Assembly: GCA_018821305.1 (NCBI GenBank)
Contig: JAHJMN010000131.1
Location: 44,106-108,105, forward strand
Source: Myxococcota bacterium
GTDB lineage: Bacteria > Myxococcota_A > Polyangia > HGW-17
Length of the DNA: 64,000 nucleotides
Direction of reading: 5' to 3'
Of this stretch, positions 4,196 to 62,084 are shown piece by piece. Under the pieces are notes generated by a model. That model was not told the DNA's origin, made no database searches, and was given only the letters and a program-made list of their open reading frames with translations. The position numbers and the translations under genes were made by a program. The number at the start of each line of letters is the position of its first letter. The first letter of the stretch is position 1.

Positions 4196-4405
4196 AATAA
4201 TTCTCCATAACAACAATTTGCAAAAAACAATTAAAAACAATTGCTTACTGTTACTGCTTTGAGTAAAAATCAGCGAAAAAATTGGAAATTTGGTATTTCA
4301 GGACATTAACTGGATAATAAGTGTGACCCTTCTGGGTATACTTATGAAAGCAGTGATAATATTTTTAATTAAAAGAAATGTACAGAATATTCAGGATACA
4401 GAGGC

Positions 4406-4741
4406 TTATTTTATTCCTGAAGTCTTGAACATGGAAAGAAGAATGTCTTTGTAATACTTAAGAGAGGCTTTTCCTGATTCAGTGATGGTAACCTCAGTTA
4501 GAGGTTTCCGGTTTACAAATTTTTTCTCAACGGAAATAAATTGAGCTTCTTCTAACTTCTTGAGGTGAAAACTGAGGTTTCCCTGTGTTAGACCACTCAT
4601 TTTCAAAAGCTTCATAAAATCAATAGAGTTAGCTTTGAAAAGGTAGCACATTATTGAAAATCTGGCAGGTTCATTTACAACCCTATCCATCTTCTCAATG
4701 TTTTCAAATGGAAACGTAATTTCTTTCTCAGAATTTTTCAT
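4406..4741 (-). CDS. winged-helix transcriptional regulator (MarR/ArsR-like wHTH)
   Basis: The 111-aa product has an HTH-wing pattern 'MKLLKMSGLTQGNLSFHLKKLEEAQFISVEK'. Confidence 0.6.
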   Translation of the reverse strand: MKNSEKEITFPFENIEKMDRVVNEPARFSIMCYLFKANSIDFMKLLKMSGLTQGNLSFHLKKLEEAQFISVEKKFVNRKPLTEVTITESGKASLKYYKDILLSMFKTSGIK

Positions 4742-4968
4742 ATCAAAACCATCCTTTCATTCTGCAGAATTAAATTTATTGCAGTACCTATAATATCGGA
4801 CGATATACAAAATGCTTTAGAAGATAATAACATAAGTTTAAAAATTTATACAACGTAAAACATTTAATGTAAAAAAATTATACTACTTTTTTATCGATTT
4901 GAGAAAAATTGACCAATTAAATTGCTATAATCTGCTTTGTTTTTACAAAGCCATTCGTTGTGTAAATC

Positions 4969-5155
4969 GGAAAAAAAGAATTTATTAAAATTTCTTATAG
5001 GTCATTACAATTTATTAATCACTAAGTAGATCGTGTACTGAAATTCAATTTTTATCAAAATTGAGCATGTTTATGAAAACATGCTATTCGTGCCTGTAAT
5101 TTGCTTCGCGAAGAAATTTATTAAAATTTCTAACAGGCTACTACAATCAATTCAA
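4969..5155. repeat. two ~45-bp AT-rich direct repeats (AATTTATTAAAATTTCT.A.AGG..A.TACAAT) plus a 9-bp-stem hairpin AGCATGTTTATGAAAACATGCT
   Basis: Copies are at about 4975-5020 and 5110-5155, with the hairpin at 5065-5088. They lie in the 590-bp gap between the wHTH regulator and membrane-protein genes. Confidence 0.65.
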
Positions 5156-5329
5156 CAATTTCGTTCTCAAATTTCCGAAGAAAACAATGCCCTTCCATAT
5201 TGATTTGCTAACCAAATCGCCTCGAAAATTCTGAAAAGAACACGTTTCAAAACTGTGACACAATACAGCATGTTCTATGGTTCAATTACCCTGAAACTGC
5301 AAACCCAGTTGATACATAAAAGTGATTGA

Positions 5330-9044: not shown

Positions 9045-10466
9045 ATGAACAAAGCCCTGATTTTTCTTTTTGGAGCAACAGGAGATCTCGCTAGAAAAAA
9101 ATTGCTTTTAGCAATTGGGAATCTTTATGCTGAAGGTTACATTTCAAGTGATTCTCAATTAATTTGTATTTCAAGGCGTAATTTTACAACAAAAGAATTT
9201 ATTGATTTTGCAAATATAAATAATAATCCAATAGTTAGTATAGTCAAATATATAAAAATGGATTTTCAAAATCCTGATCCAATAGAACTAATTGATATAA
9301 AAAACAAATTCAGTAAAGAAAACGATAGTTTTGTACAATTAAGTTACCTTGCTGTTTCCCCTGATTATTTTCTTCAAATGGTGGATGTTTTAAAAAAACT
9401 CGACCACGAAGAACACAGGATCGTTTTTGAAAAACCCTTCGGAAAGGATTTATCTCATGCGAAAGAACTTAATGAAAAAGTTCAAGAAAATTTTCCAGAA
9501 GAAAAGATTTTTCGGATAGATCATTATTTAGGGAAAGAGCTTGTCCAGAATATTTTCAATGTGAGATTTGGCAACAGGCTTTTTGAAGCTATATGGTGCA
9601 GGCAATATATTGATTCTATACAAATTACAGTTGCCGAGTCCACCGGTGTTGAAAAACGGGGGTCCTACTATGAAACAGCGGGAGCAACAAAAGATATGTA
9701 TCAGAATCATCTACTGCAAATTCTGTCCCTTGTTTGTATGGAACCGCCCTTGGATATGAATCCCGAATCAATAAGGGATCGTAAAACTGAGTTACTTCGC
9801 CAAATAAGGAAAATTGATAATAAAGACGTGGTATTCAGTCAGTATGATGAAGGATTCATTGATCTTGAACCGGTAAATAGTTATTGTCAGGAAGACAATG
9901 TTTACGAAGGCTCAAAAACCGAAACATACACAGCCACAGCGGTTTTTGTTGATAATGAACGATGGATGGGAGTACCAATATTTTTGCGAACCGGAAAACG
10001 GTTGGCAACAAGAGTAGCGGAAATTAATATTATCCTTAAAAAGCCAGAATCGAAGGTTCTGCATTCTCTCCTGGGAGAAGGAAATGAAAATATAATTACG
10101 ATTCGAATTCAACCAAGTGAAGGAATTTCCGTCAGTTTTATGGTGAAAGAGCCAGGTCCGGAAATGAAACTTGAAAAAGGACATATAAGTTTCTGCTATC
10201 CATGCCTATTTGCATTTAATACCATGGAAGCCTATGAACTGGCTTTGCTGGAAGCCCTTAACGGAGATCATACACTTTTTACAAGGTGGGATTTCGTGGA
10301 GACTTCCTGGGAAATTACTCAACAAATACTTTCTTTTCTTCCTGAGCAGATCATGGAGTTTCCGGATTACAAGGCGGGAACAGATGGTCCTGCCCGAGCA
10401 GAAAAACTGATTAGCAGGTATGGACGGAAATGGCTTCCACTTTTACCAACAATAGTTGAATCTTAA
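9045..10466 (+). CDS. zwf: glucose-6-phosphate 1-dehydrogenase
   Basis: 'FGATGDLARKKL' NADP-binding motif and the 'RIDHYLGKE' active-site motif are present. Length is 473 aa. Confidence 0.92.
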   Translation: MNKALIFLFGATGDLARKKLLLAIGNLYAEGYISSDSQLICISRRNFTTKEFIDFANINNNPIVSIVKYIKMDFQNPDPIELIDIKNKFSKENDSFVQLSYLAVSPDYFLQMVDVLKKLDHEEHRIVFEKPFGKDLSHAKELNEKVQENFPEEKIFRIDHYLGKELVQNIFNVRFGNRLFEAIWCRQYIDSIQITVAESTGVEKRGSYYETAGATKDMYQNHLLQILSLVCMEPPLDMNPESIRDRKTELLRQIRKIDNKDVVFSQYDEGFIDLEPVNSYCQEDNVYEGSKTETYTATAVFVDNERWMGVPIFLRTGKRLATRVAEINIILKKPESKVLHSLLGEGNENIITIRIQPSEGISVSFMVKEPGPEMKLEKGHISFCYPCLFAFNTMEAYELALLEALNGDHTLFTRWDFVETSWEITQQILSFLPEQIMEFPDYKAGTDGPARAEKLISRYGRKWLPLLPTIVES

Positions 10467-13723: not shown

Positions 13724-13819
13724 AAAAATATGCCTTTCGAATTTCGAATAATCTAAGATTTTCAAAAGAGGAGTGATCTTAAATTAGATATTTTTTTAAA
13801 TTCTTAAACGAAGGTATTT

Positions 13820-14017
13820 CTATTCGTCATCATCATCGCCAGTGTTAATGGAGGGAAATTTTTTAATATCTGCTCTTGCAATTTTCCAGGCTGTTTGAAC
13901 TATCCAGGAAAGTGAGCGATCCTGACGAGCCGCTTCTGCTTTGATTTCCTCAAGCATATCTACTGGAAAATAAAGACTTTGTTTTCGTTTATCAGTATTC
14001 TTTTTATCGGAATCCAT
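13820..14017 (-). CDS. small ribbon-helix-helix protein (65 aa) with acidic tail
   Basis: 'KQSLYFPVDMLEEIKAEAARQDRSLSWIVQTAWKIA' is a classic RHH/CopG pattern. The C-terminus is DDDDE. Confidence 0.45.
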   Translation of the reverse strand: MDSDKKNTDKRKQSLYFPVDMLEEIKAEAARQDRSLSWIVQTAWKIARADIKKFPSINTGDDDDE

Positions 14018-14150
14018 ATTTTACCTCCATATCCTTACATGTGCGCAAGAGTAATGAATCTGAAACAGAATACAAGTAAAAACTCTTAATAACTATCCTT
14101 TATTGACTTTTTTACTCAAATAGCATATGCCAGAAACAGGAGGTTTTATT

Positions 14151-14507
14151 ATGAAAACATGCGTACCAGTAACAGGAAAAGATCCTGAAAATTCAAATAT
14201 TAATCCACACTTTGGTTCCGCTTCTTTTTATGCTGTTTATGACTCTGAAAAAGATACAATAATTATAGAAGATGCATCAAAAGATGAACACGAGCACGGG
14301 ATGTGTAATCCTGCTCAGACGGTTATGAGCCATGGGGCTGATTCTGTGATTGTCAGTGGTATTGGTTTTAAAGCTATACAAAAACTAAATGCTGCAGGAA
14401 TCAAGGTTTTTCAAGCAGAAACATTTGATTTAATGAATGAAATAAACAAGTTGAAGAATGGTCTTCTGAAAGAGTTTGATAGTGATTCATCCTGCCATGG
14501 CCATTAA
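14151..14507 (+). CDS. NifB/NifX/NafY-family dinitrogenase FeMo-cofactor-binding domain protein
   Basis: About 118 aa with 'ASFYAVYD...SHGADSVIVSGIGFKAIQKLNAAGIKV', typical of the PF02579 domain. The start ATG at 14151 is preceded by GGAGG. Confidence 0.65.
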   Translation: MKTCVPVTGKDPENSNINPHFGSASFYAVYDSEKDTIIIEDASKDEHEHGMCNPAQTVMSHGADSVIVSGIGFKAIQKLNAAGIKVFQAETFDLMNEINKLKNGLLKEFDSDSSCHGH

Positions 14508-14542
14508 TTTTGCTTGTATTGAAAATGTATTTTTCCTAAAAA

Positions 14543-35106: not shown

Positions 35107-35270
35107 ACATAAGGATTTTATTACAGAGGAGCCTGTTAGAGATTTTAATAAATTTCTTCGCGAAGCGAATTACAGGACACGAACTATTTACAAGATACAA
35201 CCTCAGGTTAAAGCCCCTGATTGTACTGTTACTGTTACTGCTACTGATTACCTGTGCCCTGATTGTTTTT

Positions 35271-35455
35271 AACAGGGAATCAGGAAAACAGGGAATCAGG
35301 AAAACAGGGAATCAGGAAAACAGGGAATCAGGAAAACAGGAAAACAGGAAAACAGGGAATCAGGAAAACAGAATCAGGAAATCAGGGAATCAGGGAATCA
35401 GGGAATCAGGGAATCAGGGAATCAGGGAATCAGGGAATCAGGAAAACAGAATCAG
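35271..35455. repeat. compound microsatellite: (CAGGGAATCAGGAAAA)~5 then (ATCAGGGA)~8
   Basis: Direct reading shows 16-bp and then 8-bp perfect tandem units between the convergent 3' ends of the hybrid-kinase and Sel1 genes. The repeat generates spurious ORFs 35103..35477 and 35263..35586. Confidence 0.9.
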
Positions 35456-35534
35456 GAGCAGCGGGAGTTTACTTTGAAGGGAAGTGTTTTTGTGGCATCA
35501 AAACGAGTGACTATCTTATTACTAAGGACAGTAA

Positions 35535-36983
35535 CTATTTACAAGCGGGATTTGTGGGATCAATAAGGCATCCTTTTTTAATGTAATTTTTCGCCGCGGT
35601 TTCATTTTTATAAAAATATGGGCCGCTTATCCGGTGGGCTTTTGCAGCGGCAAAACAGCTCGGGGCATGACCAAGGGTACAGAAAGACTTGATTTTCATA
35701 GCAAAAGTAGAATCAATTGTGAAAAGCTTTTTCTCAATACCAACATCCAGGAGAGCGGCACAGGCATCCGCATGATTGTTTTTGCATGACGCCATTGCAA
35801 GAGAAACGCCGGTTTTTTCGTCTCCGTCGGTGGCGGTTTTTGTAATATACATAATTCCAAGAGCTCCACAAGCCTGCCCATTTGTGGGGTACTTCTGGTT
35901 CTGGTAACTATAATGACGGTAACGATAATATCGGTATCTATTGTAATTGTTAGATTTATAGCATTTTGAATAGAGCAACTTAGCTGCGGACGCAGGATCT
36001 GCTTTCATCCCGATACCGGTGGCCATTGCCTGAGCATAGTGAACACAGCCATTCTCACTGCCCATGAAGCAACTGCGCCGGAAAATATCAGTTCCTTTAT
36101 CTTTATCTCCAGTTTGAGTAAATGAAATACCCAGTTCAATGCATGCATCATCCTCTCCCTTGATGCAGTTATCTTTGAGTATCCGATGGGCCTCGTCGCG
36201 ATTTTTAGTTCCAAACCACGCCCCCGTAAGAGCTTTTGCCTGGAATATACATGCTCGTCGGTAACCGGTTTGACATAGAGTTTTAAGGGAATCATAGTAG
36301 GAGATGGAGGATTTGAAACTCGTCAATCCCGATAATATCAGTCGAAAACTGTTAAGACATCCCGTATGATGACCATAGCGACAGGAAAGCAAATAATACT
36401 CTATGCTTTCAGACATTTGTCTTCTTCGTTCTCGCAGCGTAGCCGCCATTTCACAACTGAGAGCACTTTTTGCACGACAACCGGCGGTATATATTCCCTC
36501 AAGGGTCGCAGTGTCAAGTCGGAGAAATCCAATCCGGTGGATATTATTTCTCAACTCATCACACCACTGCCGATTTCCCTTACGACAAAGGTCATAACTG
36601 TAGTTGAAAAAATCACGAAATTGGTCCTGAGAAAGTCCACGTGAGAGTTCGGTAGTATACAGGAGTTCGCATCCCCATGAGATTTTCTTTGAACATATGT
36701 TTTCAGTGATATTTATAAGATGAGTTCGTTTTTCATAATCGGTATTAAGGGGGATAATATCAGTAAGAATAGATTTCAGGCTATCACAGGCTTGTTGATT
36801 ACCTTTAAGGCATTCGGAACTGTAAATATCAAGGCTACGGGAATTGTTTTCTTTTTCATATTTTTGAGCACATGCGATGGAAGCGGAATTGGCGCAATCC
36901 ACTGTTTTAGGCTGTGTGCCATCAGAGTTCTTAGAGCATGAAATAAAAATAAAAAGCAGCCCGACTGAAAGAAATCTATACAT
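35535..36983 (-). CDS. Sel1-like repeat (Helicobacter cysteine-rich protein-like) lipoprotein
   Basis: Lipobox (FIFISC). Many repeats with paired Cys about 36 aa apart, such as 'QACGALGIMYITK...DACAAL', are typical of Sel1/Hcp beta-lactamase-like repeats. Confidence 0.75.
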   Translation of the reverse strand: MYRFLSVGLLFIFISCSKNSDGTQPKTVDCANSASIACAQKYEKENNSRSLDIYSSECLKGNQQACDSLKSILTDIIPLNTDYEKRTHLINITENICSKKISWGCELLYTTELSRGLSQDQFRDFFNYSYDLCRKGNRQWCDELRNNIHRIGFLRLDTATLEGIYTAGCRAKSALSCEMAATLRERRRQMSESIEYYLLSCRYGHHTGCLNSFRLILSGLTSFKSSISYYDSLKTLCQTGYRRACIFQAKALTGAWFGTKNRDEAHRILKDNCIKGEDDACIELGISFTQTGDKDKGTDIFRRSCFMGSENGCVHYAQAMATGIGMKADPASAAKLLYSKCYKSNNYNRYRYYRYRHYSYQNQKYPTNGQACGALGIMYITKTATDGDEKTGVSLAMASCKNNHADACAALLDVGIEKKLFTIDSTFAMKIKSFCTLGHAPSCFAAAKAHRISGPYFYKNETAAKNYIKKGCLIDPTNPACK

Positions 36984-37147
36984 TTAAAACCCCTTCCGAG
37001 GATATGATCCTGAATTTATTATCTACTGCTCTCGTTGTAAAGTACAAAACCTGACTTTATAAATTTGTATTGATTAAAGTGAACCTGTCGCTGATTATTA
37101 TTTTGTATCATCAATTTATTATCCTTGGATTTGAGTAAATGTTTCTG

Positions 37148-37300
37148 ATCCTGATTTTTTTAGCAGGGATTCAGGAAGTCAGGAAAACAGGGAACAGGAG
37201 TCAGGGCGTAAACATTCAATATCAATAAATAATTACAAAAAGACACTGCTTTTAACTCACTTTCCAGATTTCGATCCTTATTATTCAAAAGCGGTTCTGG
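37148..37300. repeat. dispersed CAGG-rich element copy, in the divergent promoter region between the Sel1 gene and pfk
   Basis: 'CCTGATTTTTTTAGCAGGGATTCAGGAAGTCAGGAAAACAGGGAACAGGAGTCAGGGCGTAAACATTCAATATCAATAAATAATTACAAAAAG...TTTCCAGATTTCGATCC'. Confidence 0.75.
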
Positions 37301-37385
37301 TTGCCAAAACCAAGATCTAAAATAATCGTGTAAATAATTTTCAAAGTGGTAATATACGGCGAACTTTTTGAGGAGGTACTTTACC

Positions 37386-41992: not shown

Positions 41993-42239
41993 GACGATTC
42001 TCCTTTGTGCGGATTTGAGAGGAATAACCACTAATTAGTTTTATATCCGAACAGGAGTAGCTTTACTATCGGCCTGATGACCGATTAGACTGCTTGCAGA
42101 GTAAAACGATAGTAAAACTATTAATTACAAATAGATAGGGATTCTGGGAAACAGGGTCAGGCAAAATACTTCTAAATCCTTTAGTGACATAAATTGAAAA
42201 GGTGGCTATACTTTGTTTTCAGCGAAAGGGTGTTTATCC

Positions 42240-45200
42240 ATGAAAAAACAATTCGGATTCCAGATATTTGTGTCCCTGTTTTTATCTCTGCTTCTTTCCA
42301 GTGGGTGTGACGACAGCGGTGAAAAAAACGATGAATGTGCTTCCGGATGCCTGATTGAAGGTATTTGCTATCCTGACGGAGTTATAAACCCTTCTAATTC
42401 CTGCCAAATCTGCAATCCTGGTCTATCAGCGGATAACTGGTCTGATCATGAAGGTAGTTGCGACGATGGTTTGTTCTGTACGGTAAACGACATGTGCACT
42501 GCCGGAGTTTGTGAGGGCACCGAACGAATTTGTGATGACGGCATAGCCTGTAACGGCAGTGAAACCTGCGATGAAGAAAATCAGATCTGCACCGTTGGAA
42601 CACCTGAGTGTGACTCCGGGACTTTGTGTAATCTGGAGACAGATACCTGTGTTCAGACCTGCACCGGGTGTGCAATTTCCGGAATCTGCTACGGAAACGG
42701 TCAGATTAACCCCGCCAATCAGTGTCAGATCTGCGATCTGGTTACAAATGCTTCTGACTGGACCAGCCGCGACGGCGAAAGCTGCGACGACGGCCAGTTC
42801 TGCACGGTAAACGATGCATGCAGTGCCGGAGTTTGTGAGGGATCTGCCCGCAGTTGTGATGACGGTATAGCCTGTAACGGCAGTGAAACCTGTAATGAAG
42901 ATACGGACAGTTGCTCTAGTGGAACAGTCACCTGCACCGGCGGTGCCATGTGTGATATTGCTACGGATAGTTGTCTTTTTGCCTGTAATGGCTGCATTAT
43001 AAATGAAATTTGCTACGGTCACGGAAGCATTAACCTTTTAAATACATGCCAGATTTGTGATATGTCTCAGAATTCAGTTGGGTGGACAGATCGCGATGGG
43101 GCAAGCTGTGATGACGGTCTCTTCTGCACGATAAACGACACGTGCTCAAGTGGTGTATGTCAGGGATCTGCCCGTCCATGCGACGATGGTATTTCCTGTA
43201 ACGGAAGCGAAAGTTGCGATGAAACCAGCGATTCGTGCATTGCCGGAGTAACTACCTGCGAAAGTTCCGAGCTTTGTGAATTGACAACGGACAACTGCGT
43301 TCAGATGTGCACCGGGTGTGCAATTTCTGGAATCTGCTACGGAAGCGGTCAGACAAATCCCGCAAATCAGTGTCAGATTTGCGATCCCATTACAAATGAT
43401 TCCACCTGGACCAGCCGCGACGGCGAAAGCTGCGACGATGGCCTTTTCTGCACGGTAAATGATATGTGCGCCTCAGATATATGTGAAGGTACGCCCAGGG
43501 TATGCGATGACGGCATAGCCTGTAACGGCAGTGAAAGTTGTGATGAAGGCTCAGACACCTGCACGACAGGGGTAACAACCTGCGAAAGTTGGGAACTTTG
43601 CGATATGACTGCCGACAGTTGCGTTCAGACGTGCACCGGCTGTGCAATTTCCGGTATGTGCTTTGGAAGCGGCCAGATAAATCCGGCAAATCCCTGTCAG
43701 ATCTGCGATACTGTAGCGGACTCTTTTGCCTGGACCGATCGCATTGGAGAATCCTGTGATGATGGCGTAAACTGCACTGAATCGGATATGTGTGAAGGTG
43801 GCGGCATCTGCATGGGCACTGCTCTGGCTTGCCTGACGGATCGTCCCTGTATGGAAAACACCGGTTGCACTGAAGGATCCGGGTGCGGTGAGGTAATGAA
43901 TCCTGCCTGTGCCATGGATATCCATTGTGCCGATATCTGCACTGAAATCGGTGATACAGCCAAGTATTTTATTTATGAAATTTCTCCCGCAGAATTATCC
44001 ACTTCTGGTGGGGAGCTTGTAACGCTAAAAGGTTTCTTCGGTGATGGTTCAGAAGTGACCATTATCGCTGGGGGCATTTCCGTTCCTGTCCTGAGCGCCA
44101 ATTCAACTACGGTTACCTTCAGTGCTCCTGAGGCAAGCACAGATCTTGATCTCGTAATTACAGGCCCTGGTGGGGCACCGGTTGTGCGAGTTTTCAATGA
44201 ATATAATTACGGAGTTCCATATTATGTAACGTCTTCTTCCATGTCCCTTGTGTATCTTGCACCGGTGGTAACCACTGTTGAGGGGTGTAGTAATATTGGT
44301 TCAGAAGGAGTTACAGTAGATTGTGAAAAAGACGGGGGCATACCCATTCTGGTCACCGGTATGAATTTCGGAAATGATCCATCGAACCTTACAGTTCTTA
44401 TTGGGGATACCGAGTGTCAAGAGTTGGCGTTGGCAGATTATCATACTCGGATTTATTGTAACATTCCTCCTATGCCTGAAGGCGACTGGATTTTCAACGT
44501 AACGGTTATAAGGGATGGCAAGTCCGGAGTTAAGGAAGGTGGTCTGTCCTACGCAGGACCGTATATCGCTGAAGTTTTCTATAATGATGATGTTGACCCC
44601 GCTGGAGGAAGTATGCTGGAACTGCGAGCAGGCAACATAAGTTTACCTCCGGACACATCGGTATGGATCGGGCCAACAGGCACTGAAAATGAGTGTTTAA
44701 TTCTGGGGATCTTTTCCGATACAATACGATGCATAGTTCCTGCCGGGGCTGGAGTTGGTCATGAAATTAGAGTAAAAACTGGCAACCTCTGGTCCGAACC
44801 GGCACCGGTATTTTTAAATTACCGACTGCCGACAATTCAACCGGGCAGCCTGACTCCTGATCCCCTTATTCCCGGCGGTCTGATTCTTCCTTTACCGACA
44901 TATCCTGCTCAGGTTTACTTCCGGGTGGATGATCTTCCGACACTTTATGATACAGTAAATATTACTTATTATGATGGAATTAACTCCAATATCTGTCATT
45001 TCCCCGAGCTCACAGCAAACTCCTTATCCGAACCCATGGTTGGGTGCTGGATATTTGGCAATCTTTCTTCCGATGGTGCTGTCATGGGAGATTCTTATTT
45101 TTCAATCTCCGTTTGGGGTGCAACTGTTAATGGTACAGACATGCTCCAGTTTGGCATTCCGCCCCAGATGGCGACGTTTTCCGGTTGCGTTGATGACGGA

Positions 45201-45719
45201 AGCGGCAATACCGGGTCATGCCCCACGGAAGGTGGCAATACAATTACCGTAACGGGAAGCGACTTTTCCTCATCCATGCAGCTTGCGGTAAACGGAATTA
45301 CGACGGCTTACAATCTGATTTCTTCCAATGAAATCACCTTCACCATGCCCCAAGGCACTGGATATGCCAGTGTTCAAATCATCCTTCCATCGGGGCTGCT
45401 CTCCGCCGCCGCCGCGATTTCATACACCAGACCCGTAATTGATTCTGTACAAGGATGCCCTTTTACAGTTGGAAATACAACACACGGTTGTCCTGTGACT
45501 GGTGGAACAGTAATTACCATAAACGGAAGTGATTTCGGCTCATCCGGAGCAGAAGTGTTAATCGACAAAAATCAATGTACAGGTGTTTTGCATGACGCCC
45601 TGACGCCCCATCGCCGCATTACCTGCATACTGCCTCCGGGCACAGGACTGGAAGTTCCCGTAACCGTAAAAGCCGGAACCTTCACCAGCGATCCCGCCCG
45701 CCTCTCATACTTGCCGTAA
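42240..45719 (+). CDS. giant surface lipoprotein/adhesin with five tandem Cys-rich modules of about 107 aa and C-terminal IPT/TIG domains
   Basis: Lipobox (LLSSGC). Modules 'C.GC.I.GICYG.G.INP.N.CQICD...W..RDG.SCDDG.FCT.ND.C..G.C.G..R.CDDGI.CNGSE.C' recur about every 320 bp from roughly 42340 to 43900. IPT-like blocks 'IYEISPAELSTSGGELVTLKGFFG' and 'ITVTGSDFSSS' follow. Confidence 0.7.
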   Translation: MKKQFGFQIFVSLFLSLLLSSGCDDSGEKNDECASGCLIEGICYPDGVINPSNSCQICNPGLSADNWSDHEGSCDDGLFCTVNDMCTAGVCEGTERICDDGIACNGSETCDEENQICTVGTPECDSGTLCNLETDTCVQTCTGCAISGICYGNGQINPANQCQICDLVTNASDWTSRDGESCDDGQFCTVNDACSAGVCEGSARSCDDGIACNGSETCNEDTDSCSSGTVTCTGGAMCDIATDSCLFACNGCIINEICYGHGSINLLNTCQICDMSQNSVGWTDRDGASCDDGLFCTINDTCSSGVCQGSARPCDDGISCNGSESCDETSDSCIAGVTTCESSELCELTTDNCVQMCTGCAISGICYGSGQTNPANQCQICDPITNDSTWTSRDGESCDDGLFCTVNDMCASDICEGTPRVCDDGIACNGSESCDEGSDTCTTGVTTCESWELCDMTADSCVQTCTGCAISGMCFGSGQINPANPCQICDTVADSFAWTDRIGESCDDGVNCTESDMCEGGGICMGTALACLTDRPCMENTGCTEGSGCGEVMNPACAMDIHCADICTEIGDTAKYFIYEISPAELSTSGGELVTLKGFFGDGSEVTIIAGGISVPVLSANSTTVTFSAPEASTDLDLVITGPGGAPVVRVFNEYNYGVPYYVTSSSMSLVYLAPVVTTVEGCSNIGSEGVTVDCEKDGGIPILVTGMNFGNDPSNLTVLIGDTECQELALADYHTRIYCNIPPMPEGDWIFNVTVIRDGKSGVKEGGLSYAGPYIAEVFYNDDVDPAGGSMLELRAGNISLPPDTSVWIGPTGTENECLILGIFSDTIRCIVPAGAGVGHEIRVKTGNLWSEPAPVFLNYRLPTIQPGSLTPDPLIPGGLILPLPTYPAQVYFRVDDLPTLYDTVNITYYDGINSNICHFPELTANSLSEPMVGCWIFGNLSSDGAVMGDSYFSISVWGATVNGTDMLQFGIPPQMATFSGCVDDGSGNTGSCPTEGGNTITVTGSDFSSSMQLAVNGITTAYNLISSNEITFTMPQGTGYASVQIILPSGLLSAAAAISYTRPVIDSVQGCPFTVGNTTHGCPVTGGTVITINGSDFGSSGAEVLIDKNQCTGVLHDALTPHRRITCILPPGTGLEVPVTVKAGTFTSDPARLSYLP

Positions 45720-45766
45720 GGCACGGTGGAAGCAGGAAAGCAAGCTTGGGTAATTCCATCAACCTG

Positions 45767-45943
45767 AATGACCACACCCCTGAATCCGAATTCGATGTTG
45801 AATGAACGGATCATAAAAGCGTTCGTAGACCGCCTATAGTTAGCCCAGGGTTTTAACCCTGGGATCGGTGCCGGGGTAATCACATAGAAGTAAATGACCA
45901 CACCCGTGAATCCTCATGCGATGTTGAACCCGCAGACCATGAG
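45767..45943. repeat. two ~49-bp direct repeats (AATGACCACACCC.TGAATCC...CGATGTTGAA...) flanking a 77-bp segment containing hairpin CCCAGGGTTTTAACCCTGGG
   Basis: DR1 is at 45767-45815 and DR2 at 45893-45943. A third partial copy 'TCGATGTTGAATCCGCAGACC' lies at 46091-46113. The perfect 8-bp-stem hairpin is at 45844-45863. Confidence 0.8.
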
Positions 45944-45960
45944 CCTGTGCCCAAAGATTG

Positions 45961-46115
45961 CCTGTTCCTGATTACCTGATATTTAACAGGGACTCAGGTA
46001 GTCAGGCAAACAGGATCAGGAACAGGGCGTAAATATTCAATATCAATGGAATATTACAAAGACTGGAAGCAAATATTCACTTTTTAGTTTTCGATGTTGA
46101 ATCCGCAGACCAGCC
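45961..46115. repeat. dispersed CAGG-rich element copy
   Basis: 'CCTGTTCCTGATTACCTGATATTTAACAGGGACTCAGGTAGTCAGGCAAACAGGATCAGGAACAGGGCGTAAATATTCAATATCAATGGAATATTACAAA...GAAGCAAATATTCACTTTTTAGTTTTCGATG' aligns base-for-base with the 46625 copy. Confidence 0.8.
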
Positions 46116-46148
46116 TTTCCCCCTTTCCTGCGCCGCCGTAGTTGACGG

Positions 46149-46480
46149 GTCGGAACCAAAGGTGGAATGAAAAATCAACCGGGTCCGCGCGACATGGCGT
46201 GAGGTGGAATGAAAAATCAACCGGGCCCACGCGACATGGCGTGAGGTGGAATGAAAAATCAACCGGGTCCGCGCAACGCTGCTCGAGGCAAGACGAAAAA
46301 CAACCACTTCCACGCAACGCAGCGCGAAGCCGGACGAAAAATTACCAGGTCCGTGCAAGATGGCGCGAGGCCGGACGAAAAACAACCGCATCCACGCAAG
46401 ATGGCGCGAGGCCGGAAAAAAAATTACCCGGTCCGCGCAATACGGCGTGAGGTGAGATGAAAAATGAGCCGGTTCCGCGC
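46149..46480. repeat. GC-rich 41-42-bp tandem repeat array, about 8 units, consensus GGTGGAATGAAAAATCAACCGGGTCCGCGCGACATGGCGTGA
   Basis: Units 1-3 are near identical and later units diverge, conserving only the 'GAAAAA(T/C)' core and terminal 'GCG(T/C)GAG'. Head-to-tail without spacers. GC is far above the local background. Confidence 0.85.
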
Positions 46481-46542
46481 TATTATTAATATTTCTTTTT
46501 ATCAGATAAAATTTGAAAATAGGATGAACGATCCTTATACTC

Positions 46543-46564
46543 TGCAAGCGGTCTAGACCGCTTC
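46543..46564. repeat. near-perfect palindrome GCAAGCGGTCTAGACCGCTTCC (shared terminal module of the dispersed element)
   Basis: Preceded by 'CGATCCTTATACTCT', as in the copies at 46770 and 61775. It could form an 8-9-bp-stem hairpin and may act as a terminator. Confidence 0.7.
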
Positions 46565-46624
46565 CTGAGTAATACGATTGTGAGTTATTCTAAAGAAAAT
46601 CTTCAGGAGAAAGACCCTGAATGT

Positions 46625-46802
46625 CCTGTTTCTGCTACTGATTTCCTGTGTTCCTGAAATTTTAAACAGGGACTCAGGAAGTCAGGCAAACAGGGACAGG
46701 CGCAGGTCATAAACATGTAATATCAATTTAAAATTACAAAAACTTGAAGCAAATATTCACTTTTTAGATTTCGATCCTTTTACTCCGCAAGCGGTCTAGA
46801 GG
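46625..46802. repeat. dispersed CAGG-rich intergenic element, most complete copy (ends in GCAAGCGGTCTAGA palindrome half)
   Basis: 'CTGCTACTGATTTCCTGTGTTCCTGAAATTTTAAACAGGGACTCAGGAAGTCAGGCAAACAGGGA...ATATCAAT...AATTACAAA...GAAGCAAATATTCACTTTTTAGATTTCGATCCTTTTACTCCGCAAGCGGTCTAGA'. Confidence 0.8.
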
Positions 46803-47518
46803 GAGGGGGAATCCGGGGAATCGGGTTTTCTTTTTCGACTTATGCGGGATCGCTGATTTGCTAAAGCTGTGAAAAAGTCGGCAAAAACTGCTGCTGCTCT
46901 TTCTTCTCCCTTCAAAACAAGTACCGTCGACCACACGGCTTTTATTGCGTTATCCAAATCGGGAATTGTTGCTTTCATCGTAACTGGCTTTGCATCCATT
47001 GCGGCATTACGTTTTTCGAGATTTTCTAAGAAAACATCATTGGAGTTGCGGATAGCATCCACAAAAGGGCCAAAGTTTAAATTTGATATGCGGGGGGCAA
47101 CTTCCGGAGTTGAAAGAAATGCGAGACGTTCATTTAAAATACCAGTTTCACTTATGTAAGATTCCTTGAGGAATCCAAACCCATTGGGATTTATGCGTTC
47201 GAGGATAAAAATGGCATCTTCTCCTTTGTCGCTTCCCGGAAGCATAGCAAAGGATTCAAGATAGCTGCATGCAGCACGAAATGCGTCATCGCGAAGCTCT
47301 TCAAGTTGGGTAAGTTCTTCCGTAAGGGATTTTTCATGTCTTGGAACGAGGGTTGAAATGGTATTGTTTGCCCGTAGTAAAAGTTCGTCTGCTAAAGCTT
47401 TAATTGAAGGATCTTCGGGCCAGGTACTGAGACAGTTTTTTGCGGCATTTAAAGAAACTTGTGCTTTTTCAACGGAATTGAGTATAGAAACTGCTAATTT
47501 AAACATAGTTAAATCCAT
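46796..47518 (-). CDS. hypothetical protein, downstream of phoU
   Basis: 240-aa helical ORF whose stop codon lies inside a dispersed-repeat copy. Confidence 0.45.
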   Translation of the reverse strand: MDLTMFKLAVSILNSVEKAQVSLNAAKNCLSTWPEDPSIKALADELLLRANNTISTLVPRHEKSLTEELTQLEELRDDAFRAACSYLESFAMLPGSDKGEDAIFILERINPNGFGFLKESYISETGILNERLAFLSTPEVAPRISNLNFGPFVDAIRNSNDVFLENLEKRNAAMDAKPVTMKATIPDLDNAIKAVWSTVLVLKGEERAAAVFADFFTALANQRSRISRKRKPDSPDSPSL

Positions 47519-47697
47519 TCTGGCTGCTTGGAGCCTGTAAAATTATTATTGTTTATTGTAAATAATGAGCGCTCGAAAGTGACGTTATTTGGTCACATAA
47601 GATTATCCGCTGGTATGAATAACGGTTGCGAAAAAATCTTAATTTTTTTTCAAGTGATTGATTATTAATAATAATAAATGCGGAATTTTGAAGAGGG

Positions 47698-53656: not shown

Positions 53657-53838
53657 GTATCCTCCTTAGGCCGGGAAACAAAGTCCGGCGGTTTTGACCG
53701 TTTTCAGCTTAGAAGGATCGATAAACTTCTAGATTAGACTGAAAACGGTATGGGTAAAAACTGAAGTGAATATTAACCGCAATTGTTAAGACTTGATTAA
53801 CTACCCGTGAGTTATAAATGAAAACTGAAGGAGGGAAA

Positions 53839-61740: not shown

Positions 61741-61990
61741 AAAACATTTAGTCTTTTCAAATTTCGATTACTCCGAAAGCGGTCTATACCGCTTGCAGAA
61801 TAAAATGATCGAAATAAGAAAATTGAATCAAAAATTACGTTCTTTTTAATTATTAATTGATATTGAATGGTTACGACCTGTTCCTGAACCTGTTTTCCTG
61901 ACTTCCTGATTCCCTGCTAAAAAATCAGGAAATCAGTAGCAGGAACAGGAAAACAGGGGGCCTGCTGCTGCCCCTGATTTCCTGAATGCC
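61741..61990. repeat. dispersed element copy: palindromic 3' module plus CAGG module in inverted orientation
   Basis: 61765-61800 'TTTCGATTACTCCGAAAGCGGTCTATACCGCTTGCAG'. 61868-61912 'CCTGTTCCTGAACCTGTTTTCCTGACTTCCTGATTCCCTGCTAAAAAATCAGG' is the reverse complement of the 37148 copy. Confidence 0.75.
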
Positions 61991-62084
61991 TGTCTACCTG
62001 TAGTTAATAAATAGTGTTGTATTTATTAATTATTTTACTTGAAAATTCGCTAACCGATCAGCATTGGGTCTAGTTTTGGATTTT

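Follow-up and report, generated by a model that had tools for sequence, protein, structure and literature searches.

In the parts of the literature that describe them, Correia (CREE/NEMIS) elements of Neisseria are bacterial transposable elements of the miniature inverted-repeat class (MITEs) with structured interiors (PMC10969869, PMC3184786, PMC2229807), and the repetitive extragenic palindromes (REPs) of enterobacteria and pseudomonads form the mosaics called bacterial interspersed mosaic elements (BIMEs; PMC2817692, PMC3333891, PMC3733652). Here, a repeat island of about 1.1 kb from an uncultured deep-groundwater Myxococcota bacterium was compared with these systems. It occupies positions 45720–46795 of a 64,000-nt stretch of contig JAHJMN010000131.1 (assembly GCA_018821305.1), and this whole stretch, with a GC content of 40.7%, is called the window below. 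The left neighbour of the island is the gene of a 1168-aa cysteine-rich IPT/TIG surface protein (the adhesin gene, 42213–45719, + strand), and its right neighbour is a DUF6261 gene (46796–47518, - strand) that follows phoU; the island sits in a gene-free zone where the adhesin and pst-phoU-DUF6261 transcripts converge. We consider it probable that the island is a head-to-tail pile-up of a lineage-specific, palindrome-ended, non-coding repeat family together with minisatellites, that is, an insertion and recombination hotspot of the MITE/BIME-like kind.

A profile built from four copies was run on the window and recovered at least eight full or partial copies of the family at six separate loci between 35 and 62 kb. 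Full copies were located at 37.1 kb (+), 45.9 kb (+), 46.6 kb (+), and 61.9 kb (-), with E values from 1e-53 to 1e-63, and partial copies at 35.2 kb, 42.1 kb (-), 46.53 kb, and 53.7 kb (-). The 30-nt CAGG core was matched four times in the window and never in shuffled sequences. In a full copy, a CCTG-rich arm pairs across a T-rich loop with a CAGG-rich arm (z = -3.8); these are followed by an AT-rich stretch conserved as CGTAAACATTCAATATCAAT...ATTACAAAAA and then by a right end. The right end has the 27-nt consensus TTTCGATCCTTTTACTCYGCAAGCGGT, which was found with no more than seven mismatches at 37269 (+), 42089 (-), 46526 (+), 46769 (+), 53697 (-), and 61788 (-), and also inverted at 46557–46583. 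In size, copy C measures 239 bp and the others about 170–310 bp. No trace of the family was found in Rfam, plasmids, phages, viral contigs, or Joint Genome Institute (JGI) metagenomes: 72,556 plasmids and 50,697 phages contained no similar DNA, and a 28-base pattern of CAGG plus AATATCAAT had 0 matches in the JGI metagenomes. An 18-base CAGG core did match at least 24 loci of unrelated taxa in a genome-contig collection, and none of the matches listed shares with the element anything beyond a short CAGG-rich stretch around the core; we take them as chance matches.

An earlier reading of the sequence, the first-pass annotation, had described the gap as free of credible coding sequence and packed with at least four types of repeats. 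We found no credible gene in 45720–46795 either; nearly the whole gap consists of repeats, none of them expected by chance, and all four types were recovered in place. The direct repeats, given as about 49 bp long and 126 bp apart around a perfect hairpin, are present as 55-nt repeats at 45748–45802 and 45874–45928 (80% identity, 126 bp apart), with a third, partial 21-nt copy at 46092–46112. It is more apt to regard them as a 126-bp tandem unit present in 1.5 copies; the unit carries a diverged module right end (CGATGTTGAATGAACGG...AAGCGTT) and a CGTAG-ACCGCC junction. The two copies of a CAGG element were recovered as well (45940–46112 and about 46600–46800). In the first of them, copy B, the CCTG arm, the loop, and the CAGG arm form a long hairpin, after which come an AT-rich stretch with AATATCAAT and then TTTCGATGTTGAATCCGCAGACCA. 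Two palindromes had also been counted; GCAAGCGGTCTAGA does occur at 46544 and 46787, but at the second site only the left half is present (GCAAGCGGTCTAGA followed by GG, not CC).

The ends of copy C are inverted over 27 nt and 85% complementary, and CTAG stands on both sides of them (46553 and 46796). This tetranucleotide is rare in the window, where it occurs 19 times against 232 expected from base composition (12-fold depleted); copy C has one of these sites on either flank, and another two are located at or next to other pieces of the family. The next four bases past the right end differ among copies (CTAG, CTAG, ATAG, CTAA, TCTG, and CAAA), as expected of flanking target DNA. Where copies abut, the two ends make a GCAAGCGGT-CTAG-ACCGCTT palindrome. 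Because the right end recurs in inverted form at 46557–46583, the GCAAGCGGTCTAGACC palindrome can be understood as a right end, CTAG, and an inverted (left) end. As we read it, a module opens with ACCGCTTCC..., continues with a variable body, and closes with ...TTTCGATCCTTTTACTCYGCAAGCGGT; both ends are clear in copy C only.

With these boundaries we infer that the island comprises five modules, head to tail and all facing the same way. M0 (to about 45828) and M1 (about 45829–45939) would be short modules whose body holds the perfect hairpin, joined by the CGTAG-ACCGCC junction. They would be followed by B (45940–46112), with a CAGG body, and by X (about 46108–46552), composed of a 41/42-bp array and an AT-rich tail with a good right end at 46526–46552; after X would come CTAG, copy C, and CTAG. 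As we read them, the bodies are of three types: the CCTG/CAGG hairpin with an AT-rich stretch (B and C), the short hairpin body (M0 and M1), and the array (X). One 21-nt motif, CGATGTTGAAYCCGCAGACCA, forms both the M1/B and the B/X junction and looks like a full junction minus its nine central bases, and the 21-nt motif CGATGTTGAACCCGCAGACCA is likewise read by us as a collapsed end-to-end junction. The features of the island and the family copies elsewhere in the window are listed in table 1.

Table 1. Features of the repeat island and copies of the repeat family elsewhere in the window (window coordinates)
Feature	Position	Strand	Remarks
First full 126-bp tandem unit (module M)	45748–45873	+	contains the 55-nt direct repeat and the perfect hairpin
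Perfect hairpin, CCCAGGGT-TTTA-ACCCTGGG	45844–45863	.	8-bp stem, 4-nt loop; single occurrence in window; inside the 126-bp unit
Partial second 126-bp unit	45874–45939	+	terminates in the 21-nt motif CGATGTTGAACCCGCAGACCA
CAGG element copy B	45940–46112	+	nhmmer E = 2.4e-58; fold z = -3.8
41/42-bp tandem array	46127–46480	+	about 8 units; Tandem Repeats Finder (TRF) and unit similarity
Junction palindrome	46526–46583	.	right end 46526–46552, CTAG 46553–46556, copy C left end 46557–46583
CAGG element copy C	46557–46795	+	239 bp; E = 3.7e-62; CTAG at 46553 and 46796
Terminator-like hairpin, TTCAGGGTCTTTCTCCTGAA then GATTTTCTTT	46602–46621	-	consensus scan only
Right-hand CTAG of copy C	46796–46799	.	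includes TAG stop codon of DUF6261 gene
Copy E, arms only	35203–35468	+	CAGG arm grown to 21.5 copies of CAGGGAAT
Copy A, upstream of PFK gene	37091–37295	+	right end 37269–37295; possible left end about 36989–37012
Diverged short copy, upstream of flp pilin gene	42060–42170	-	right end 42089–42115, then CTAA
Solo right-end piece, upstream of 408-aa gene	53686–53730	-	6 mismatches to consensus; CTAG just before
Copy D, between converging genes	61760–62075	-	complete end palindrome and extra CAGG arm

A possible route to such a pile-up is transposition into CTAG, a step that we put forward tentatively, at somewhat less than an even chance, and mainly on the strength of copy C. The modules would spread like MITEs, moved by a transposase encoded elsewhere that favours the rare CTAG. 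Each insertion would duplicate CTAG beside a resident copy, later insertions would adjoin it, and the island would grow; this duplication would explain the head-to-tail pile-up. The internal 8-bp CAGG, 41/42-bp, and 126-bp repeats would expand and contract by replication slippage or unequal crossing-over, a change in unit number that was observed for the 126-bp unit and is presumed for the others. As for the hairpins, any action as barriers to transcription or RNA decay between the two converging operons is probably no more than incidental.

Several observations weigh against a mobile family that piled up at this site. Clean inverted ends and identical flanks were found in copy C only; copy D is flanked by CTAG and ATAG, and the flanks of copy A, TAAA and TCTG, do not match. 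For the other modules, similarity of the left end to the consensus is not significant, and the left end of copy A is weak (z about 2). Moreover, the palindrome has a conserved centre, TCTAGA, that includes CTAG, so CTAG could be element sequence and not a duplicated target. Neither a transposase gene nor one for a REP-associated tyrosine transposase (RAYT) was found in the window; in Pfam scans of the 64-kb window, open reading frames (ORFs) of at least 150 aa contained no transposase, integrase, partition, or replication family. The copies are 76–85% identical to each other and hence do not represent a recent burst. All eight lie within 35–62 kb and none in 1–35 kb, a distribution that would be unusual if the element transposed freely; the first 35 kb are without a copy despite several long intergenic regions, for example 4241–5329 and 13766–14542. 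The array is assigned to module X by its position, and its unit is not significantly similar to the module ends and was found only at the island. Finally, only the contig of the window spans the whole island. The contigs of the metagenome-assembled genome (MAG) overlap by 42 bp in copy C, and consequently the join of the two sides of the island is not independently confirmed.

The same DNA is present in the NCBI MAG GCA_018820545.1, whose proteins are labelled ‘Myxococcota bacterium’, and in run SRR2544012; a study of biofilms in deep groundwater (PMC5364579) mentions this run. L003, a contig from a second assembly of this organism, was 99.7–99.99% identical to the window and contained one extra 126-bp unit. 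This unit is a hybrid of both unit types, as unequal crossing-over would give. The short-read contigs (L001–L004) end at 46770, 46657, 46616, and 35469, each inside a family copy.

Loci of more distant relatives were also compared. One relative (L030, PFK 83% identical) keeps the synteny PFK-smpB-RsbRD-lactamase, another (L032, PFK 77% identical) keeps PFK-smpB-lactamase, and a second locus from the same MAG as L030 (L035, PhoU 68% identical) keeps pst-phoU, with topoisomerase VI genes directly after phoU. No family copy was found in these three loci (56 kb in total), and the family is considered lineage-specific because it was not found in the relatives sampled. In a sister strain (run SRR32001354) with about 90% nucleotide identity, similarity to the window starts at 37319, 23 bp past copy A, on the PFK contig (L033), where the upstream genes differ, and it ends at 47695, just past the phoU stop, on the phoU contig (L034), where a different converging gene comes next. 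These contigs have no copy A and no island at the two sites, and the gene order is also altered at both. The family thus sits where gene order has changed; since the order differs at both points, these are not clean empty-site comparisons. The proteins beside PFK in the sister strain have no transposase domain. A promoter-like stretch of PFK, AAGTGGTAATATACGGCG, is common to L030 and the window and lies downstream of copy A, so copy A is an addition upstream of the promoter and not the promoter itself. In L032, the region upstream of PFK (9127–10000 of that locus) is unusually long (874 bp) and includes a stretch that is GC-rich and dense in hairpins (ggtccgggtgtcccgg ... ccagtgtgggccgtttccacactgg ...), and no Rfam family was found in it at threshold.

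The first-pass annotation had left the choice between a recombination or integration hotspot and a cluster of structured small RNAs or protein-binding sites. Its first suggestion is supported by the modules of a dispersed family, by the ends of copy C with their CTAG, by the extra 126-bp unit, by the assembly breaks, and by the boundaries of similarity to the sister strain. Its second is not, and we consider it unlikely, with no Rfam family at threshold, no covariation, and no partner gene of a binding-site array nearby.

The palindromic ends could also be those of REP/BIME-type extragenic palindromes. The 55-nt palindrome itself would then be the repeated unit, copied by a RAYT (a Y1 tyrosine transposase) or spread by recombination, with the CAGG bodies and the array in the role that variable linkers have in the BIMEs of Escherichia coli. 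The repeats are indeed extragenic, most of them next to gene 3' ends, they form a mosaic of conserved and variable motifs, and GC-rich hairpin units occur in a tandem cluster. However, the modules, and the 42-bp units too, run head to tail in one orientation, whereas alternating orientation defines BIMEs. REPs, which come with a RAYT gene and number more than 100 per genome, are GC-rich imperfect palindromes of 20–40 nt that bear a GTAG or CGTC tag at one end. The end palindrome here (55–58 nt) is not GC-rich and is centred on TCTAGA, and the tag is missing from most ends; the junction of the 126-bp unit alone reads CGTAGACC. Moreover, the 42-bp hairpin unit is not dispersed, and the Pfam scans of window ORFs of at least 150 aa detected no transposase family. 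We regard an origin as REP/BIME palindromes as unlikely.

The array deserves separate consideration. TRF placed it at 46160–46480 with 7.7 copies, and the unit similarity extends back to 46127; successive units are spaced by 42, 42, 42, 41, 41, 41, and 41 bp. A degenerate 40-nt unit pattern was matched seven times in the array and never in shuffled sequences. Each unit reads GAAAAA(T)CAACC and then an imperfect inverted repeat, CCGCGC-N6-GCGYG(A)GG. Identity among the seven full units is 61–98%: the first and second are nearly the same, and those in the middle are old and have diverged. We treat the array as a minisatellite grown by slippage. Its unit was found nowhere else in the window, nor in 61 kb of related loci, JGI metagenomes, or viral contigs. 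A derivation of the unit from the module left end (ACCNNNTCC) was considered and rejected, as was kinship between the AT-rich tail of X and the tails of the CAGG elements; in neither case was the similarity significant. The array had been noted for standing out as GC-rich against a genome of roughly 38% GC, and it does so at 57.9%, although the background is the 40.7% given above. By contrast, the notion that a 14-codon period keeps the frames open is wrong, for the spacing is 41 bp in four cases out of seven. The ORFs that run through the array (- strand, 156 aa; + strand, 102 aa; neither with a Pfam match) stay open because T is depleted on the + strand (A 108, C 95, G 110, and T 41 in 354 nt).

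It is quite unlikely, in our view, that these repeats are non-coding RNAs, with the GGA-rich CAGG hairpins as sponges of the CsrA/RsmA type and the array as a processed or protein-binding + strand RNA. A(N)GGA is the core bound by CsrA, CAGG(G)A motifs recur every 7–8 nt in the family, and copy E has 21.5 such units. The array is strand-asymmetric, with 11.6% T on the + strand, and its G-T pairs work on that strand only; compared with shuffled sequences, its fold reached z = -2.06 on the + strand vs 0.08 on the - strand. The unit hairpin pairs in 81% of cells, against at most 54% when the partner columns were slid. Nevertheless, no covariation was found in any of the three hairpins: the unit hairpin showed none beyond shuffles, and the CAGG hairpin and the end palindrome had no compensatory changes. 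No Rfam family reached its gathering score across the window, and even at permissive thresholds no CsrB, Rsm, or other RNA family matched (Csr/Rsm at E up to 10 in the island and up to 1 at 35–37.4 kb). In copies B and C, the long hairpin keeps most GGA motifs paired, the array is not bracketed by a convincing promoter or terminator, and units 3 to 6 have diverged to 61–83% identity, with broken pairs in two of the units. The repeats were not found in the relatives sampled and so are not a conserved regulator. It is very improbable, too, that the 41/42-nt array, and possibly the GGA-dense CAGG arms, make up a multi-unit regulatory RNA on the + strand, acting as a protein sponge or as a precursor cut at A-rich linkers into hairpin units, with the family as its mobile carrier. 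If this were true, the family would distribute RNA modules and outward-reading signals beside genes such as PFK, flp, and the adhesin gene in this Myxococcota lineage.

Artefacts of metagenome assembly, namely repeat-induced chimeric joins or collapsed or expanded repeats, were weighed as well, and there is only a slim chance that they created the island. Other assemblies break inside it, the number of 126-bp units differs between assemblies, and a single contig spans it completely. On the other hand, 45720–46657 was recovered at 99.7% identity in an independent contig of the NCBI MAG and 46616–46800 at 100% identity in two other contigs, and the copies at 35.2, 37.1, and 42.1 kb aligned with L003 without gaps. 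An artefact is mostly excluded by these independent contigs. The least credible explanation, for which we see hardly any chance, takes the array as in-phase protein-binding sites, either centromere-like as in sopC of plasmid F, whose 43-bp repeats it resembles, or iterons of an integrated replicon: about eight units of 41–42 bp, near four helical turns, each have an internal inverted repeat and an A-tract, but no parA, parB, sopAB, or rep was found among the scanned ORFs of a window that otherwise holds housekeeping genes, the plasmid and phage collections gave no similarity, the units have diverged to 61–83% identity, and two of them (4 and 6) have lost an intact inverted repeat.

Some further identities were tried and rejected. 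The motif CGATGTTGAAYCCGCAGACCA ends in ACCA as a tRNA-derived attachment site might, and there is no tRNA or transfer-messenger RNA (tmRNA) gene in the window. For integron attC sites, the GTTGAAT/GTTGAAC motifs are 126–173 bp apart, too close for cassettes, and no integrase gene was found. A sigma-54 or sigma-70 promoter in the TCACTTTTTAGATTTCGAT stretch was discarded, with GG/GC elements not conserved among copies and a promoter scan that passes over it. At AATATCAAT, the TTR half of the integration host factor (IHF) consensus is missing in all four copies. A match to Acido-Lenti-1 RNA at 45827–45863 (-) scored 23.9 bits against a gathering score of 37 and contains little beyond a generic 8-bp hairpin and GCUAA. 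The array is not a CRISPR array, as its units abut and no spacers were found. Nor was a type III (ToxIN-like) toxin-antitoxin system detected: no ORF follows the repeats on the + strand, and the DUF6261 protein has no PADLOC hit.

The other genes of the window are ordinary chromosomal ones. They include nadA, oxidative pentose-phosphate genes, nifS/nifU-like genes, histidine kinases, PFK, smpB, the flp pilin gene, a large alpha-2-macroglobulin gene, and the pstSCAB-phoU operon. Copy E sits between a PAS histidine kinase gene and a 482-aa gene; its microsatellite (35271–35457) comprises 21.5 copies of CAGGGAAT, or 11.9 if counted as the 16-mer AACAGGGAATCAGGAA, follows 4.5 copies of TACTGT, and does not differ in the second assembly. 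What may be the left end of copy A (36984–37012) abuts the start codon (36981–36983) of the 482-aa gene on the - strand and gives this gene a ribosome-binding-like GGAAGGGG on that strand. The terminator-like hairpin within copy C is a candidate end for the DUF6261/pst transcripts. The DUF6261 protein itself returned only itself in a word-based search of 5.8 billion proteins and had no match in NCBIfam, and its gene was not found downstream of phoU in the sister strain or the more distant relative. Within the adhesin gene, two internal repeats of about 290 bp (42615–42900 and 43266–43548, 81% identity) encode cysteine-rich repeats of the CDDGxxCNGxExC type and probably cause assembly breaks as well. 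A 23-nt repeat, TTCGCGAAGAAATTTATTAAAAT, occurs without mismatch in two intergenic regions in opposite orientation (5105–5127, +; 35142–35164, -). The stretch common to both reaches about 35 nt, including ...TCTAACAGGCT, and is unrelated to the CAGG family.

A profile of the family would help to annotate MAGs of this deep-groundwater Myxococcota lineage, whose assemblies from short reads are interrupted at these repeats. Assemblies differ in their 126-bp units and may also differ in the 8-bp and 41/42-bp arrays, so these repeats could serve as strain markers in a habitat whose populations are otherwise difficult to distinguish. If CTAG targeting is true, it would be a simple route to islands, each insertion making a fresh target beside itself.

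Among known systems, the Correia elements offer a close parallel to the pile-up of non-coding modules that we favour. Both are short (about 240 bp), non-coding, and dispersed in intergenic DNA; both are dense locally, contain an AT-rich stretch in their interior, and can form hairpins, and both often lie beside gene starts or ends where transcription can change. The inverted ends and short flanking repeat of Correia elements have a clear counterpart in copy C. The ends and body of the family, however, share no sequence with any element in the searched collections, and its interior consists of expanding 7–8-bp CCTG/CAGG microsatellite units (up to 21.5 in copy E). Correia elements use a TA target, whereas the apparent target here is CTAG; clean inverted ends are seen in one copy only, and no parent insertion sequence is known. 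With REPs and BIMEs, the island has in common palindromes and variable linkers joined into mosaics or tandem clusters, a position between converging genes, and GC-rich hairpin units. It differs from them in its head-to-tail modules, in ends that mostly lack the GTAG/CGTC tag, in a longer (55 nt) and AT-richer palindrome, in a 42-bp unit that is not dispersed, and in having no RAYT gene within the window.

Two kinds of tandem arrays are also comparable. The short tandemly repeated repetitive (STRR) heptamers of heterocystous cyanobacteria are arrays of 7–8-bp intergenic units that occur at many loci and vary in unit number, as do the CAGG arms; the arrays of the family are, by contrast, two hairpin arms inside a larger element with defined ends, and their unit (CAGGGAAT / CAGGAAAA) is different. 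ToxI of type III toxin-antitoxin systems and sopC are direct tandem repeats of about 36–45 nt, with an A-rich segment in ToxI and an internal inverted repeat in sopC. The 41/42-bp array is alike in its repeat length and in having an A-rich segment or inverted repeat; unlike them, it is accompanied by no downstream toxin gene on either strand and by no partition genes among the scanned ORFs, and its units are much more diverged. Of the general properties of MITEs, the family has the short length (239 bp in copy C, with MITEs under about 500 bp), the lack of coding capacity (the ORFs of the island match no Pfam family), and the dispersal, with at least eight full or partial copies at six separate loci in the window. 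We see in it a previously undescribed family, familiar in kind, and no system of a new type.

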